Virus record (IMG/VR): IMGVR_UViG_3300034272_001354
Location: 12,983 to 76,982 of that record
Direction: 5' to 3' (one strand)
DNA from: a virus
Length of the DNA: 64,000 bases
In this document: piece by piece, positions 49,780 to 57,978 of the stretch
How the letters are laid out: every line of letters starts with the position of its first letter
How positions within the stretch are numbered: the first letter of the stretch is position 1
The notes under the pieces: generated by a model
What the model was told of the DNA's origin: nothing
What the model saw: the letters and a program-made list of their open reading frames with translations, nothing else
Database searches by the model: none
Translations under genes and position numbers: made by a program

Positions 49780-49845
49780 AGGACAAAGATAATATAAAAA
49801 TTGGTATAAACAAAAAAAGGTGTCACATTTCTGTAACACCTTTTT

Positions 49846-50730
49846 GGCTAATACGATGAGAATACTCGTGTTATTAAGAATCTTCGGAAGGATTATTGTT
49901 TCCCTTCTTTTCCACCATCTTTTGAATGGTAATCCTCAGTGACAATTGGTTAGACCAATTACTCCTTGAGATATCATCTACTCTCTTATTATTCAACTCT
50001 CTTCAACCTTGCGGGCTGACTCCGGATTCGACTCCGTAGAGGTTTTTCGTAAGAATACATTCTGACTTGCGGTCATCCTGTGCAACGAACGGCTCGTTAC
50101 TATGTAGTCACCTTGTCGATGATACCTGACAGACACTTTTGCTTATGTATCTTTTTAGTTTTACTTAAAATGTCCTATAAGTTAATTGTGTTGTGGATGT
50201 GTCCAAGTAGAGGTCTGTCGTAAGCTTCGTTATCTTTTGAACAACAAAATACTAATCTACTCGGTAGAGTGTCCCCACTCTCATATTTTAAGATTACTTC
50301 AAACTGACATCTTGGTAGATGTTTCGTAAGGTTAGTAGCGACACCACTCGTTCTCTAACTTACCTTTCGGTTTTAAGTCCCCTTTGATATTGGAATCCGT
50401 AATTATAAGGTTGGATGACCCTATTTCTCACATAATCCCTATCGGTTATTCTTGTTGGTGTTCCCACCTCAACCTGACGACCCACATCGCCCGGTCACCC
50501 AACCACTTTCTCTAAAGCGTTGCCCTCAATACTGAAGGTCAGGTGATATCCGACTTGTATACTCGAGCTCCCTTTCAGAAGCCGCAGAACCAATAACACT
50601 AATGATTCCACTTTATCCCGGTTTCCCGGTTTATTTAAGGATGATATACCACCCATTATCGTTTCTTACATCACCGAAGTGTGTAATGGATAATCTAAAA
50701 TTTCTAAGAACGTTTAAGGTTTCCCTCAAT
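49846..50730 (-). ncRNA. large structured non-coding RNA, GOLLD-like
   Basis: About 880 nt with no ORF of 60 aa or more, GC-enriched, many GNRA/UUCG-capped hairpins; bounded by promoter 50738-50745 and terminator 49812-49845; next to tRNA-like genes. Confidence 0.65.
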
Positions 50731-50805
50731 TGTTTTACAAAGATAAGTGATTTTTTTCATTTGTCAAGCACTTTATAAAACTTTTTTTTAATTTTTTTTT
50801 ATTTG

Positions 50806-50896
50806 TGGTATCGGCGGGGTTCGAACCTGCGGCACAGAGTCTTTCGTTACTCTTGCTCTACCAAGGAAGATAAATCTTCCACTGAGCTACAATACC
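50806..50896 (-). ncRNA. tRNA-like RNA with D-loop hairpin insertion and 8-nt non-canonical anticodon loop
   Basis: Acceptor GGTATTG/CGATACC, D stem GCTC/GAGC, TTCGAAC T-loop; anticodon loop AACGAAAG. Confidence 0.65.
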
Positions 50897-50908
50897 ATGT
50901 AAAAAAAA

Positions 50909-50981
50909 TGTGGGTGTATGCTCTACCATCTGAGCTACGGATAAATCCGGAGGGATTTGAAACCTCGACACGACACCCACA
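50909..50981 (-). ncRNA. circularly permuted tRNA mimic (Y RNA/YrlA-like architecture)
   Basis: 9-bp terminal stem TGTGGGTGT/ACACCCACA, T-arm, loop-closed acceptor CGGA-TTTA-TCCG, D-arm GCTC-AGATGGTA-GAGC. Confidence 0.65.
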
Positions 50982-51072
50982 CTAATCTTTCAATATTTTT
51001 ATGAACTTTATTTCTTGTACAAAGATAAGACATTTATTTTTATCTGTCAAACTTTTTTTTAATTTTTTTTTG

Positions 51073-51174
51073 TAGTCAGGACAGGATTCGAACCTGTTCC
51101 GTCTTTACCATAAAGAGTCGGCCTTACCGTTACTCAACCTTGGGGAGGTGATACCAACCAATGGTCTCCTGACT
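51073..51174 (-). ncRNA. tRNA-like RNA with aberrant core
   Basis: Acceptor AGTCAGG/CCTGACT and T-arm ACAGG-TTCGAAT-CCTGT are intact; no canonical anticodon arm. Confidence 0.55.
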
Positions 51175-51329
51175 ATGTTTCGTTAATGTTAAAAACTGAT
51201 TCAATCCTCCTAAAAAACACTAACTTCCTACTTACTCTATTATAGGCTCGGCCGTCCTCTTTTAAATATAGTTTTACCTGAAACTTCTTTGGGTTGTTGA
51301 TTGACCACTCCCACTTACTCAAGTAGTTT

Positions 51330-51584
51330 TTAACAACTCATCATCCAACCCATTCGGTTTTGTGCTTGATACTGAGAATAAGTACATTTTCTCATGGACT
51401 TGTAATCAGGTCTCAACTTAACGTGAGTAGGATATTTCTTCTCGTGTTCCTTTTGTTCTCTCATTACACGAGCATACGCCTCTCTTTTACTTGGAGCCCA
51501 CACATCATTAAAACCACCACCAATCCAATTAAACAAATATAGGTATTCACCATTAACACTTCTATACAATTTCTCTTTAGTCAT
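51330..51584 (-). CDS. hypothetical protein
   Basis: 84-aa ORF with TATCTTTG promoter at 51606-51613. Confidence 0.65.
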   Translation of the reverse strand: MTKEKLYRSVNGEYLYLFNWIGGGFNDVWAPSKREAYARVMREQKEHEKKYPTHVKLRPDYKSMRKCTYSQYQAQNRMGWMMSC

Positions 51585-53270: not shown

Positions 53271-54296
53271 TTACAATTTTTTAAATTCAGGTCTGATTAG
53301 GTTCCATATGATTTCAGAGTAATCTTTTTTATCTAACATTCTAAATAGAATTCCTGACAAATGTTTTGGTTGGGTTGATACCCACTCAGCAAACTCTTTT
53401 CTATCTGTGATAGGTTCTTTGTCGTTATATTTCCCATACATCATATAATCAAACTTTTTACCTGCATCTTCAGATATTTGGAAGTAAGAATATCTCAAAT
53501 CTTTAACATAGTTTTGAATTTTTTTGTAAAATTCATCCGGAACATCTTTTAATAGTTCCATGACATCCTCACCATTTTTAAGATATTCCCAAATACCGGT
53601 TGTGGTAACATTAGTCATAATTTTGTGAAGACGTAGATATTCAACCCCTTTAACTTTGATTCTATCTCCATTAGAGAACTTTACCACAAATCCTTCTTGG
53701 TCATCTTTAATCATGGATTTAAGTTGATTAAAATCCTTAATACCATCATATTTTTTAACCACATCAAACCCCCATTGTGACCAAATCTCAGAATCGGTTT
53801 CTTTCCCGTTCTTATCAAATGTCCCCAATAGAATTAGTTTCTCATCATCACCATAATCCAAAACAATTCTGTTCTCCGGATAGATAATTTCAAAACAAAA
53901 AGTCAAATGTCTAAACATAATATCTTTGTTATATTTTTTAAGGATTTCTGTCGCCTTGATTGCTTGGTCAGAAGTGAATGAACCACGAGTGGCTACCACC
54001 CATTGACCTTGATACCAAAACACAATCCCTAATGAACCATCCATTTTTTCAAATACTTCAAAGTTTTCAGTTGGGGTAAATTTACCTTCTTCTATATTAA
54101 AGAATTTTTGGAATGGTATTGCAACCATATTCCCTTCGTTATCGGTAACTAAACCTCTACACATCAGGGTCACCTCATCCCATAGGTTCTCGAACTGAAC
54201 TTTTTCAGTGTAGTTCCATATGGTTAATGGAAGTGTTGGATGTACTTGTTTGTAAAGTAATCCGTCTTCGTAATATTTGTTTAGTTTTTCTAACAT
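53271..54296 (-). CDS. RNA ligase 1 (T4 RnlA-like)
   Basis: CRGLV, KFFN, EKMDGSLG, ATRGSF, FEII, EGFVV, KVK. Confidence 0.9.
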   Translation of the reverse strand: MLEKLNKYYEDGLLYKQVHPTLPLTIWNYTEKVQFENLWDEVTLMCRGLVTDNEGNMVAIPFQKFFNIEEGKFTPTENFEVFEKMDGSLGIVFWYQGQWVVATRGSFTSDQAIKATEILKKYNKDIMFRHLTFCFEIIYPENRIVLDYGDDEKLILLGTFDKNGKETDSEIWSQWGFDVVKKYDGIKDFNQLKSMIKDDQEGFVVKFSNGDRIKVKGVEYLRLHKIMTNVTTTGIWEYLKNGEDVMELLKDVPDEFYKKIQNYVKDLRYSYFQISEDAGKKFDYMMYGKYNDKEPITDRKEFAEWVSTQPKHLSGILFRMLDKKDYSEIIWNLIRPEFKKL

Positions 54297-54307
54297 AATT
54301 TTTTCAA

Positions 54308-54706
54308 TTAAAGTTTCACCTCGAAACGTTTTTTCATTAACCCCAATTTATCTTCCGGAACCCCGTGTTCATTAACACCTCCGTGTCTGTTTTCTACGAT
54401 AAGTGAATGAACTCTGTATCCATATTTTTCCGCTAATTCAAAATAAGGTGTCATTTCCCACTCTTGTGTGAATGTGTTTGAAACTACAATTCGTTCATTA
54501 ATATTTGCCGAGTAATTTAAAAGCATTGCATTACTAACTTGTGTCTGACACCAACTATGAGCATCTCTTAATCCTGTAATGTCAAATTGATACTCACCAT
54601 CTTTCATAAAATACATATCGGCTTCGTAATGAACACCACCGATTGATTTTGCCAATGTTGATTTACCACTTCCCGGTAATCCTCTTAATAAAAATAATTC
54701 TTTCAT
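54308..54706 (-). CDS. P-loop polynucleotide kinase-like (AAA_33)
   Basis: LRGLPGSGKST, VSNTF, HGVP. Confidence 0.8.
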   Translation of the reverse strand: MKELFLLRGLPGSGKSTLAKSIGGVHYEADMYFMKDGEYQFDITGLRDAHSWCQTQVSNAMLLNYSANINERIVVSNTFTQEWEMTPYFELAEKYGYRVHSLIVENRHGGVNEHGVPEDKLGLMKKRFEVKL

Positions 54707-54912
54707 AATTTTATGTATTGTCGTTTATATTTTGTTTGTTGTTCATTTAACACAAGGATATATCTTTTACCTGATTTGGTTTTGTAAACCTGAAATCTCA
54801 TCGTGTCAATATAATACCATTCATCAGTATATGAATGTTCATAAATTCTTTTTTCAGCTTCACAAGACACCAAAGTGAAAAATAAAAATAATATTATTAA
54901 ATTTTTTATCAT
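54703..54912 (-). CDS. small lipoprotein
   Basis: MIKNLIILFLFFTLVS-C lipobox. Confidence 0.6.
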   Translation of the reverse strand: MIKNLIILFLFFTLVSCEAEKRIYEHSYTDEWYYIDTMRFQVYKTKSGKRYILVLNEQQTKYKRQYIKL

Positions 54913-55220
54913 ACCTCACATTCTTTTAAATGTTTAATAATTTTTTCAAGACCTTTAACATCCTCCGATTTAATTATGAATTCATCAAAGGCACCATATC
55001 TACATTGTCTCCCAAAAATATATCTTAATCCATAACCAACTCTTTGCCAAAATGGTCTTTTATTAAGATGTGTGTGAATATAAACCATAGGATATGTCAT
55101 ACCATCAATTTCGTCTTCAGAATATAATACAACCATTTGATGTTCTGTACTATGACAGGAACATATGAATAAATCTGTTTTTGTTTCTTTAACTCTCATA
55201 TCACTTTCTTTTTTTACCAT
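54909..55220 (-). CDS. hypothetical protein
   Basis: ORF with CSCHSTEH motif; true start may be internal. Confidence 0.6.
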   Translation of the reverse strand: MVKKESDMRVKETKTDLFICSCHSTEHQMVVLYSEDEIDGMTYPMVYIHTHLNKRPFWQRVGYGLRYIFGRQCRYGAFDEFIIKSEDVKGLEKIIKHLKECEV

Positions 55221-55863
55221 CTTCAGTTATTACCTCATCTGTGTGGTGGTCACCATCCATATTTGAACGAATCTCTCTTTCCTTAACAATCTTAATTACG
55301 TTACTTAAATCGTATGGTGAAAAGAACAAACTACCATCCATTCCTACATCCATTCTACGGCCTTTACCAAAAATTTTTGTTTGAGGTAAGTGACAGTGTC
55401 CGTGTAAGTGGATGTGTCCTTTGTTTAACCCATCCCAAGAATCAATTGGATAGTGCATTAAAACCAATGTCTCAAACTTATACATTAATTTTGTGTAGTG
55501 ATTAACACTTGCAAACATTTCCTGACAATCCTCTCGGTTGTTTTCAATGTGATGGTCGTGATTACCTAATATAAGGTGAATCTCTTTACACACAATTCTA
55601 TCTCTAAAATTTTTGATATTTTCAAATCCCCCAAAACTCCAATCTCCCAAGTGAATCAAAACATCATCTTGACCAACAACACTATTAATGTTGTTTACAA
55701 TCATATCATTCATCTCACTAATTGAATCAAAATCTCTAGTTTGAGCAATTGGAATACCCCCATCAGGTAATCTCCACGCAGTCACACCACGACATATATT
55801 TTTATGTCCAAAGTGTGTGTCGGAAGTTATCCATACCTTTCTATCTTTATCTATCTTAATCAT
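55201..55863 (-). CDS. calcineurin-like metallophosphoesterase
   Basis: SDTHFGH, HLGD, GNHD, HYP, HGHCH; start MIKIDK at 55863. Confidence 0.88.
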   Translation of the reverse strand: MIKIDKDRKVWITSDTHFGHKNICRGVTAWRLPDGGIPIAQTRDFDSISEMNDMIVNNINSVVGQDDVLIHLGDWSFGGFENIKNFRDRIVCKEIHLILGNHDHHIENNREDCQEMFASVNHYTKLMYKFETLVLMHYPIDSWDGLNKGHIHLHGHCHLPQTKIFGKGRRMDVGMDGSLFFSPYDLSNVIKIVKEREIRSNMDGDHHTDEVITEDGKKRK

Positions 55864-56548
55864 ACTGCAAATATACAAAATTTAATAACTTATTTAAATC
55901 CATTGTAACATTTTTTGGTGTTTTTTCAGGTGACAATATTTTCTCAACCTTTTTTGTTTGTGATGCTAACTCATATATAGTTTTTTTATCTGTACCAATA
56001 TTAAAAACCCCTTCAACATTTTTGTTTATTAATTTAACTAATAAATCAACAATTTTAGGGGTATAGTCGGCATTTGTGATAACATCGGTCCAAGCTCTAT
56101 CATATTGAAAAGGGAAAGGTTTATGAGATAAACGACAAATTAAAAATTTATCACATTCTAATTCGACATGTGCGTCACCAATTAATTTACTATACCCATA
56201 CCAACTTGAATGGTGTACGGGAACGTCACTTTCTTTTCGTTCATTGTCAGAATTCGCATAAATATAGTCAGTAGATATGTGAACTAACTTTTTACCCATC
56301 TGATTACAATAGTTAACTAAATGTTTTACAAAATGATAATTTATCTTTATATGTAATTCTTTATCATCCGAATATGTGTTAGTATTTGCAATACAATTAA
56401 CTATAACATCATATTTGTCTAACTTAAACATCCATTTGTCAAAATCATCAAGGTTTATGTTATCTTTCTTACGTGAAATATAATCCCACCCAGTTTGTTT
56501 TATAATTTCACCACCTAATATACCATCTCCTAAAACTATAATCTTCAT
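55856..56548 (-). CDS. RmlD-like dTDP-sugar reductase (SDR)
   Basis: GDGILG, HISTDYIY, YGYSK. Confidence 0.8.
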   Translation of the reverse strand: MKIIVLGDGILGGEIIKQTGWDYISRKKDNINLDDFDKWMFKLDKYDVIVNCIANTNTYSDDKELHIKINYHFVKHLVNYCNQMGKKLVHISTDYIYANSDNERKESDVPVHHSSWYGYSKLIGDAHVELECDKFLICRLSHKPFPFQYDRAWTDVITNADYTPKIVDLLVKLINKNVEGVFNIGTDKKTIYELASQTKKVEKILSPEKTPKNVTMDLNKLLNFVYLQYD

Positions 56549-57033
56549 ACTAACTCTTTTTCATAATTAAACCATTTAGGTTTTTCTCTGTTTTTCCAAG
56601 ACGCCAAACTAATTTTAGCACCCATGTAATAATTTCTATAAGATTCCACAACAGAATCTACCTTAAACTCATCCGGCATCGCCATCGCCGGAGTAGTGAA
56701 ACCAATGTCCGGGATGTTTGGTTTATTAATAATACACCAATTAATCACATCTATTGATTTGTGTCTTTTACCATACCTGTGGGTATATTCTTTTCCCAAC
56801 TCCAATCCCAATTCACACAAGTACAAATAATTTGATAAACTCTGACGAGCCCATACCGCACAAGGGTGATTCTTATGTGACAACTTGTACGGTACTTGGT
56901 CGGTATCTTGGTCGGTTACGTGATGAACCGAACATAATAACTGAGCAGTTTCCAATATCATTTTCACTACGTGTTTATCTACGTGGTATTGTGCCGACAA
57001 TATAGGATTCTCATCTAAGAAAAATATATTCAT
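56545..57033 (-). CDS. pyrimidine-dimer DNA glycosylase / DenV-related family protein
   Basis: MNIFFLD...DKHVVKMILETAQLL, HKNHPC, AMPDE, YRNYY. Confidence 0.7.
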   Translation of the reverse strand: MNIFFLDENPILSAQYHVDKHVVKMILETAQLLCSVHHVTDQDTDQVPYKLSHKNHPCAVWARQSLSNYLYLCELGLELGKEYTHRYGKRHKSIDVINWCIINKPNIPDIGFTTPAMAMPDEFKVDSVVESYRNYYMGAKISLASWKNREKPKWFNYEKELV

Positions 57034-57503
57034 TATACGTGTGGTATTCTGACTCTAACACAAGTTTGTGCTTGACCCTCGTTCATATAAAAATTGTTCA
57101 AATATCCCATAATGTTCGCACTCCCAATAGGGTTTGCAGAATGAACATATACAATTGGAAATACAAATTTATTCGCCTTTCTATCACTTCTACTCATATT
57201 AAAACGAGCTTCATTAGTATTGTGAAATAATGCAACCAAGAATTTAGCAGCGTCATATCCTGTTTTTTCTTCAATATTGTTATAATCCAAAGTATAGTTT
57301 GGAGAAACATTATCAAAATACTCTTTCATTGCAGTATCACCCAAATCGTGGTCCAAAGATATTATATCAATATTTTCTAACCCAACTTTATTTACTTCAC
57401 TAACAAATTCATCGTAATTTCTTACAACAATCCAATTATCTCCCGTTGGAGTTCTTACGTCATCTAAATAGATACGGTAAGGTGGTTTTACATTATTTTC
57501 CAT
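57033..57503 (-). CDS. cyclic-phosphate-processing receiver-like domain protein
   Basis: YLDDVR, ISLDHDLG, TGYD, VHSANPIG. Confidence 0.75.
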   Translation of the reverse strand: MENNVKPPYRIYLDDVRTPTGDNWIVVRNYDEFVSEVNKVGLENIDIISLDHDLGDTAMKEYFDNVSPNYTLDYNNIEEKTGYDAAKFLVALFHNTNEARFNMSRSDRKANKFVFPIVYVHSANPIGSANIMGYLNNFYMNEGQAQTCVRVRIPHV

Positions 57504-57504
57504 T

Positions 57505-57978
57505 TTATAATAATTTTTTTAATACACTATCCCAATCAGGATATTCATTCCAAACTTTTTTCTCATAATTCCAACCGAAATGAATTAATTCACCGGTAAA
57601 CTCTCCGGCACCATTTGCCGTTCTGTCATCAATTAAATAATCACCAAGTAATAAATCTTTTCGGTGAGTTATTACCATTTTCTTATGAAACAACCTACCA
57701 AAATATTTTTCAATCCAATACCTCTTATCTGTTGAGGCATATGGGTTACCCCAAGGTGATGCAGTAGCAATTAATAATTCATACTTACCACTCTCAACCA
57801 ACTTATTGATTGCTTCAATAGCACCATCATATGGTTTAGGGTCTCTAAAAATACCCGGAATATGGTCTGGACTATGTTTATACTTGTGAACTAAATTTGG
57901 ATGTTCATCGAACCATTTATCGAATTCCGCACCTAAATCGACCAACACACCATCCATATCAATAAAAATCCTTTTCAT
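57505..57978 (-). CDS. 5'(3')-deoxyribonucleotidase (NT5C, HAD)
   Basis: FIDMDGVL, KDLLLGDYLIDD; TATCTTTG promoter at 57997-58004. Confidence 0.85.
   Translation of the reverse strand: MKRIFIDMDGVLVDLGAEFDKWFDEHPNLVHKYKHSPDHIPGIFRDPKPYDGAIEAINKLVESGKYELLIATASPWGNPYASTDKRYWIEKYFGRLFHKKMVITHRKDLLLGDYLIDDRTANGAGEFTGELIHFGWNYEKKVWNEYPDWDSVLKKLL

Follow-up and report, generated by a model that had tools for sequence, protein, structure and literature searches.

The window analyzed here is a 64,000-nucleotide (nt) stretch of virus DNA, positions 12,983-76,982 of IMG/VR record IMGVR_UViG_3300034272_001354; the source contig (77 kb, 26% complete) is a fragment of a lake phage of ~310-320 kb, whose two complete relatives (both 100% complete) measure 318 and 322 kb. 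On the minus strand at 50909-50981 it carries a short RNA gene, here called the module, followed after a 12-nt spacer by a tRNA-Phe-like mimic and then by a GOLLD RNA, an order kept in all members of the clade with enough sequence; RNA repair genes lie upstream (Table 1). The identification of the module as a genuine phage gene under selection, which encodes a minimal tRNA mimic of the YrlA class, is solid. As to its job we favor, with a probability of roughly 40%, a Ro60-independent decoy of the YrlA type that mimics the body of tRNA in the contest between cleavage and repair of tRNA.

Read on the minus strand, the module runs UGUGGGUGU-CGUGUC-GAGGU-UUCAAAU-CCCUC-CGGA-UUUA-UCCG-UA-GCUC-AGAUGGUA-GAGC-AU-ACACCCACA, letter for letter as in the original prediction, which had been made from these letters alone. 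The junction nucleotides, in tRNA numbering, match a circular permutation exactly: the GUGUC before the T stem is a class-I variable loop, and the CGUGUC linker is unchanged across close relatives; the T loop supplies U54, U55, C56, A57 and A58 (50957-50961), and the D loop holds A14, G15, G18, G19 and A21. Because the acceptor is sealed by a loop and the anticodon stem ends in the RNA's own termini, there is neither an anticodon loop nor a CCA end, and the acceptor stump has no free 5' or 3' end. RNAfold returned the predicted drawing as both the minimum-free-energy and the centroid structure (-25.8 kcal/mol, z = -3.2), with an equally stable fold in 1 of 200 shuffles; the word made of T loop, short hairpin and D arm occurs once in the window and in none of 100 shuffles. 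One detail of that drawing has to be corrected: the T stem, given as five pairs, has four standard pairs, the last (53:61) being a U.C mismatch. ARAGORN made no tRNA call at 50909-50981, and the module fails as a functional or permuted tRNA, in that its termini form nine continuous pairs with no anticodon loop, its acceptor is a 4-bp stem capped by UUUA and not an openable one of 7 bp, and no bulge-helix-bulge occurs at the permuted junction, the closing stem being uninterrupted in all first-copy variants.

Some 30 related viral contigs carry the module. Scanning viral contigs for its pattern recovered it in 22 contigs besides this one; a search starting from a word of the GOLLD leader, which is blind to the module itself, gave 7 further contigs, with the module in 7/7, and another, starting from a neighboring protein, yielded additional module contigs. 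A covariance model of the phage family (R1) was built from 7 variants, and 13 distinct sequences were aligned to it. In this alignment 98.5% of cells pair, and compensatory (both-side) changes affect 11 of the 21 pairs, in all four helices, a level reached by none of 500 shuffles and approached by no slid register; the alignment was fitted to the covariance model, so that these figures somewhat favor the structure. Compensation is seen at 4 of the 9 pairs of the closing stem, 100% of whose cells pair, at 2 of the 4 T-stem pairs (between paralogues) and at 4 of the 4 acceptor pairs, with cap length and sequence varying freely among relatives; the D stem is nearly invariant across the alignment. 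The fold on which the original prediction had been staked is thus kept in relatives and backed by covariation. Some relatives have, directly after the tRNA-Phe mimic, a second and strongly diverged module copy with the same fold, which is not in this window; its T arm reads GUUGG-UUCGAUU-CCAAC, its acceptor loop is bigger, and its closing stem has a mismatch or bulge. In L213, the copy that diverges most, A occupies position 56 of the T loop and the D loop has GU at the usual G18 G19 site, changes that may, in an ambiguous register, represent a compensated elbow pair.

Several further candidate features were rejected. The GAUUUAUC cap that the module shares with the tRNA-Phe mimic is not a conserved one: module caps among relatives read UUUA, UUCA, UUUCAAAU, UCUUAACC, UUUUAACA or GAUUAAAA, or span 13 nt; that of the tRNA-Phe mimic stays UUUA or UUCA/UUCG. 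Pairing of UUGAA in the leader with UUCAA of the T loop shows no covariation in L213 and was treated as chance, and the search for descent from one of the phage's own tRNAs gave no clear parent, the D half being nearest, weakly, to the tRNA-Phe mimic and tRNA-Ile. In type B relatives (L009 1917-1993(+) and others) a 12-nt word of the T arm, GGUUUCAAAUCC, recurs in the acceptor cap, and the RNA thus carries two adjoining T-loop-like hairpins.

At permissive thresholds the best Rfam match in the region is the model to which the original prediction had pointed, that of the YrlA Y RNA (RF02553; Chen et al. 2014, PMC4201824), a match of the core that scores 40 bits against a gathering threshold of 69 bits (E = 2.6e-7; 6.8e-9 against the contig). 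With cmscan, model positions 1-114 aligned with the module core at high posterior probability; the alignment is real only over the T, acceptor and D core, A/U filling the place of the Ro60-binding outer helix. For Bacteroidota the 69-bit cut-off is not decisive, because in a Bacteroidota genome with Rsr two YrlAs lying directly after that gene score only 39.5 and 41.8 bits with Rfam. The module has the YrlA order of T arm, closed acceptor-like stem-loop and D arm, with the tRNA tertiary nucleotides. Fold, Rfam core match and cross-matches of the phage model R1 to Ro60-linked and RtcB-linked bacterial modules together support a circularly permuted tRNA core with closed acceptor, missing anticodon loop and YrlA topology.

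The promoter proposed along with the module from its box at 51020-51027 is real as a motif (sigma-70 scan 10/12): P1 sits 30-60 nt upstream of the module, with TTGACA, 17 nt and TATCTT, and is kept in most relatives; we take its TAnnTTTG / TTTG form to be the Bacteroidota promoter type. The leader is unpaired in the consensus fold. The closing stem plus the U run after it was rejected as an intrinsic terminator, the terminator scan having made no call there and type C relatives having AAAAUAUAU in place of the U run; the module, the tRNA-Phe mimic and GOLLD share one predicted transcription unit. This arrangement would also suit a purely cis-acting element of the polycistronic precursor, that is, a stable folded leader, without any role in trans, that protects the transcript of the tRNA-Phe mimic (and GOLLD) or guides its processing. 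For such an element speak the single promoter upstream with no terminator until past GOLLD, the conserved leader sequence, and the invariable place of the module directly 5' of a tRNA-like RNase P substrate. We nonetheless think it rather improbable: a simple hairpin would suffice, yet all the tRNA tertiary nucleotides are retained and the acceptor stump and closing stem covary; the ~33 single-stranded nt ahead of the module leave the 5' end uncapped by it; and GOLLD has its own promoter here and occurs in sister phages without the module.

Other elements were seen in and around this unit. Just upstream of the module promoter lies an odd tRNA-like gene (51073-51174, minus strand) with an intact acceptor (AGUCAGG/CCUGACU) and T arm and an oversized middle, which received no ARAGORN call and 17 bits from the Rfam tRNA model. 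In the relatives G003 and G005 a structured-looking insert of ~160-190 nt (L207 1250-1410(+)) stands between the module and the tRNA-Phe mimic, and in type C/G relatives a GC-rich element (GGUGGGGG...CACGCCCAC) with an extra promoter-like unit (L213 2780-3100(+)) stands between the tRNA-Phe mimic and GOLLD; neither has an Rfam match.

Table 1. Features at the module locus of the window and at the related loci discussed in the text (window positions unless a locus is named)
Feature	Position	Strand	Basis or remark
Whole module	50909-50981	-	~73 nt; closing stem, T arm, capped acceptor stump, D arm
Closing stem, 5' strand UGUGGGUGU, anticodon-stem equivalent	50973-50981	-	9 bp with 50909-50917; fold
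Linker C + GUGUC, 5-nt variable-loop equivalent, G46 and C48 in place	50967-50972	-	sequence
T arm GAGG(U)-UUCAAAU-(C)CCUC	50950-50966	-	fold; aligned to YrlA T arm
Sealed acceptor stump CGGA-UUUA-UCCG, pairs 66-69 with 4-7	50938-50949	-	fold
U8 A9 and canonical D arm GCUC-AGAUGGUA-GAGC	50920-50937 (D arm 50920-50935)	-	sequence, Rfam alignment, fold
AU linker and closing stem, 3' strand ACACCCACA	50909-50919	-	fold, covariation
Promoter P1: TTTG/TTGACA 51045-51051, 17-nt spacer, -7 box TATCTTTG 51020-51027	51020-51051	-	sigma-70 scan 10/12
A/U-rich 5' leader (predicted), conserved AAGAAAUAAAGUUC...AUUGAA	50982-51016	-	upstream alignment; start inferred from promoter
A/U-rich spacer UUUUUUUUACAU	50897-50908	-	alignment; 12 nt to next gene
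tRNA-Phe-like mimic with D-loop hairpin	50805-50896	-	ARAGORN; Rfam tRNA 37.5 bits; same order in relatives
Second promoter, preceding GOLLD	50740-50767	-	promoter scan
GOLLD RNA (Rfam 3' domain 49853-50264)	within 49812-50767	-	Rfam
Sole terminator of the unit, after GOLLD	49814-49845	-	terminator scan
84-aa open reading frame, virus-only family, no known domain	51330-51584	-	86-99% identical upstream of module in many relatives
Rnl1-type RNA ligase	53271-54296	-	Pfam, PHROGs
AAA_33 kinase	54308-54706	-	Pfam, PHROGs
Metallophos phosphoesterase	55201-55878	-	Pfam, PHROGs
cREC_REC cyclic-phosphate receiver domain	57033-57503	-	Pfam, PHROGs
HAD-like protein	57505-57978	-	Pfam, PHROGs
Second module copy	L209 1501-1590 (= G001 263951-264040)	-	diverged paralogue
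Second module copy	L207 1501-1587 (= G005 67650-67736)	+	diverged paralogue
Module-free GOLLD locus	L298 (G219 240216-243633)
Module-free GOLLD locus	L300 (G217 206304-209711)
Firmicutes module	L116 2925-2998	-	phage-model match in metagenome-assembled genome
Firmicutes module	L170 3846-3915	-	phage-model match in metagenome-assembled genome
Firmicutes module	L115 1207-1277	-	phage-model match in metagenome-assembled genome
Firmicutes module	L171 4947-5023	+	phage-model match in metagenome-assembled genome
Firmicutes module	L119 925-989	-	phage-model match in metagenome-assembled genome
Firmicutes module	L169 240-310	-	phage-model match in metagenome-assembled genome

Ro60 binding, together with modification by TruB and DusA, is among the traits of the YrlA class. 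The phage RNA lacks both the 7-8-bp basal stem and the ~19-nt 5' internal loop with UACUUCG that mark Bacteroidota YrlAs, and the Ro60 site GNCGAAN0-1G is absent, the leader reading ...AUAUUGAAAGAUUAG. RNAalifold found no conserved leader-trailer (basal) helix outside the module among 7 leader+module+trailer sequences, and an extended basal Ro-binding helix was rejected on that ground and on the weakness of manual leader-trailer pairing, which is confined to type A. Among proteins, TROVE was found neither in the 77-kb contig nor in five relatives (two of them 100% complete), DUF2828 in none of the six records searched, and vWA_Ro60 neither in the phage contig nor in the relatives searched, including two that are 100% complete, a Ro60 recognizable by fold alone lying outside the reach of this search; RtcB was not found in two complete relatives. 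The structural reading of the original prediction is thus borne out, and so are its caveats that no Ro60 gene and no clear Ro-binding stem are visible. Jumbo phages with TROVE and a tRNA-like partner are on record (PMC7824862), and TROVE is absent from 4 of the 5 other viral records with such modules. We conclude that the phage RNA is the effector-side domain of YrlA minus its Ro60 side.

The obvious alternative is a genuine Y RNA that borrows a host Ro60/Rsr, with the closing stem and flanks binding Rsr and the tRNA-like domain recruiting PNPase or another effector, as in RYPER. In its favor, topology and core sequence agree with YrlA, and a low score is no bar to membership where Ro60-linked Bacteroidota YrlAs themselves reach only 40-42 bits. 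Among 201 sampled Bacteroidota genomes, the phage model R1 matches in 3, each time within ~1.2 kb of TROVE, so that in the likely host phylum such modules are Ro60-linked; TROVE itself occurs in merely 14 of the 201, and most potential hosts are therefore without Ro60. With that scarcity, with neither a GNCGAA-type motif nor a conserved leader-trailer helix, with the basal stem and UACUUCG internal loop missing and with none of the known Ro60 families that were searched found in the phage, we judge a borrowed Ro60 unlikely.

GOLLD lies on the same strand at every clade locus with enough downstream sequence (13/13, 5/5, and 7/7 found independently via GOLLD). GOLLD genes are often beside tRNAs or contain them, and their cages have been proposed to hold tRNAs (PMC12286853); the module might thus be a partner or cargo of the cage, a tRNA-shaped ligand docked in or enclosed by the 14-mer. 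We give little weight to this, as GOLLD and Rnl1 occur with no module, even with filters off near GOLLD, in the sister phages G219 (317 kb, 100% complete) and G217 (282 kb, 96% complete), and two huge uncultured phages matched via GOLLD have ordinary tRNAs beside it instead of the module. In G219 a plain tRNA-Met ~760 nt upstream of GOLLD takes the module's slot, an arrangement also reported at the GOLLD env-38 locus. The module is dispensable to both GOLLD and Rnl1, which the sister phages keep without it; the module is an accessory, not a core, gene in a slot usually held by tRNAs. Moreover, the module class occurs in bacteria without GOLLD, and the clade-wide linkage, coming from a single clade, may simply be inherited synteny. 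We found no publication that connects GOLLD with Y RNAs in function. Distant GOLLDs have no 11-mer in common, and a clade-level 20-mer was used for the GOLLD-seeded scan. The GOLLD RNA contigs from four metatranscriptome runs all end at 50664-50681 (minus strand), ~55-70 nt downstream of the start predicted from the promoter at 50740-50767, and this common end hints at 5' processing of GOLLD.

RNA repair genes, named in the original prediction as frequent neighbors of YrlA, are indeed close by: a cassette for RNA end healing and sealing (53271-57978) lies 2.3 kb upstream of the module on the same strand, between a tRNA array and the unit of tRNA mimic and GOLLD; in five relatives the Rnl1 ligase lies 3.6-4.7 kb upstream of the module. 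The region is flanked by the tRNA array at 59-64 kb and a tmRNA at 48.1-48.5 kb, and the genome island thus holds tRNA array, Rnl1/kinase/phosphoesterase cassette and tmRNA/SmpB. The 84-aa frame, which gained no function from Pfam, PHROGs or Atlas, was rejected as an obligate protein partner: it also occurs without RNA genes nearby (L251, L254-L256) and in an ordinary tRNA array (L270). The locus carries a single 73-nt module and not a two-module RNA of 360-400 nt, and the ten nearest upstream open reading frames (51.3-59 kb) gave no Pfam match to DUF7873, a family that was not searched genome-wide.

Ligases recur beyond the phages. At six Firmicutes loci the phage model matches (39-55 bits) on the same strand as RtcB and 100-200 nt downstream of it; TROVE had no match in the four Firmicutes genomes searched, and we found no paper describing these modules. 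RtcB and a tRNA mimic seem to be paired here independently of Ro60, and the recurring neighbor of Ro60-free modules is an RNA ligase. T4 Rnl1 seals nicked anticodon loops, and the open anticodon-stem end of the module resembles a broken loop. The module could accordingly be a substrate or platform of the repair enzymes, sealed by Rnl1 into an exonuclease-proof circle or holding the ligase ready for broken tRNAs. Its place directly after RtcB in Firmicutes would agree with this, as would the cassette 2.3-4.7 kb upstream in all module-bearing relatives tested; but Rnl1 is retained in sister phages without the module, the cassette stands at varying distance with other genes between, and circular junctions are only predicted, so that we think this quite improbable. 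A decaying, rearranged tRNA pseudogene without function, as might be suggested by the ordinary tRNAs that take the slot in sister phages and by the lack of the module in some relatives, is hardly credible given compensatory changes in all four helices, invariant tertiary-contact nucleotides and a second, diverged paralogue that holds the same fold.

As a Ro60-independent tRNA-body decoy, the reading we prefer, the module would be released when RNase P cuts the 5' end of the downstream tRNA-Phe mimic and trimming then frees the L-shaped RNA, which would then substitute for the body of a tRNA in trans and with no need of Ro60. The protein kept busy in this way would be one that recognizes the elbow or body of tRNA, most likely a defense nuclease of the host that cleaves tRNA or a sensor of damaged tRNA; offering it nothing to cut, charge or tag, the module RNA would serve as a competitive or product-like inhibitor. 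This class of target is the best candidate because the phage devotes much to tRNA repair and to spare tRNAs; because counter-defense genes are usually present in some sister phages and absent from others, as here; because the YrlA tRNA-like domain resists a Salmonella anticodon nuclease, of which it has been proposed to be a competitive inhibitor (PMC7790460); and because defense nucleases, Slfn5 and PARIS among them, excise the anticodon loop from tRNAs (PMC13056530), leaving the very outline of the module RNA. In a more specific form, which we would call doubtful, the RNA copies, in a single chain, a tRNA with its anticodon loop cut out, the PARIS/Schlafen product, and is one of an unrecognized class of Ro60-independent tRNA-body mimics that accompany RNA ligases (Rnl1 in the phage, RtcB in Firmicutes), blocking host tRNA-cleaving nucleases or blinding damaged-tRNA sensors, possibly after circularization by Rnl1.

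Several points weigh against the decoy. Many anticodon nucleases recognize the anticodon loop itself, which the module RNA is without, and a tight tRNA mimic would not usually have the T-arm mismatch at 53:61. Since a single clade supplies all phage copies, synteny with repair genes may be inherited rather than functional. RNA contigs of four metatranscriptomes on 49800-51250 cover GOLLD (49849-50681) and not the module, a result that is uninformative for a 75-nt structured RNA, and speaks neither for nor against its expression, since such libraries and contigs tend to miss small structured RNAs.

We know of no binding partner reported for the YrlA tRNA-like domain since 2014; the domain has been studied only as an appendage of the Ro60 system. 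Here that domain stands alone, with no Ro60 handle or gene, yet its fold is clearly selected, and together with the look-alikes adjacent to RtcB in Firmicutes it suggests that the tRNA-body module has a job of its own, tied to RNA ligases and tRNA damage. The 73-nt RNA offers a clean bait for the elusive elbow-binding factor and is a candidate RNA-based counter-defense. It also indicates that the tRNA slot upstream of GOLLD can host tRNA mimics that do not decode, though GOLLD needs none.

Among known systems, permuted tRNA genes bear a formal likeness to the module. They were reportedly described by Soma and colleagues in 2007 in Cyanidioschyzon merolae, and in some archaea; they encode complete tRNAs, which mature via a circular intermediate and the bulge-helix-bulge endonuclease. 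In both cases the tRNA 3' half is encoded ahead of the 5' half, with the acceptor joined by a short linker, but permuted tRNA genes have an anticodon loop and a 7-bp acceptor, whereas the phage RNA has no such loop, an acceptor of 4 bp and no bulge-helix-bulge. Phage tRNAs that counter tRNA-targeting defenses, by evading anticodon nucleases or replacing their targets (PMC10264068, PMC11555353), are likewise phage-encoded tRNA shapes within tRNA islands, set in a conflict over tRNA cleavage; they are chargeable and have altered anticodon loops, whereas the module can neither decode nor be charged.

The RtcB-linked modules of Firmicutes come near to the phage core, reading GUGUC-GAGGG-UUCAAAU-CCCUC, a 4-bp tetraloop stem and UAGCUCAG..GGUAGAG, and also have an RNA ligase nearby. 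These are cellular, with RtcB directly adjacent, whereas Rnl1 lies 2-5 kb away in the phage, and their RNAs extend into further hairpins on both sides. With the YrlA RNAs of bacteria and actinophages the phage RNA has in common the order T arm, loop-closed acceptor, D arm, termini on the side of the anticodon stem, a D arm of the GCUC...GGUAGAGC type, the retained elbow and core nucleotides, and a gene near RNA repair genes and tRNAs. It differs from them in length (~73 nt vs. 80-220 nt), in having a straight 9-bp stem where YrlA has a kinked one with an internal loop, in the mismatch at 53:61, and in lacking the basal Ro60-binding helix and motif, the phage itself having no detected Ro60 gene. 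The design is thus already known from YrlA, since the published description and structure (Wang et al. 2018, 10.1101/312249) match its topology; what is new is a minimal Ro60-less form of it that shares its transcription unit with a tRNA-Phe mimic and GOLLD and has an Rnl1 repair cassette nearby.

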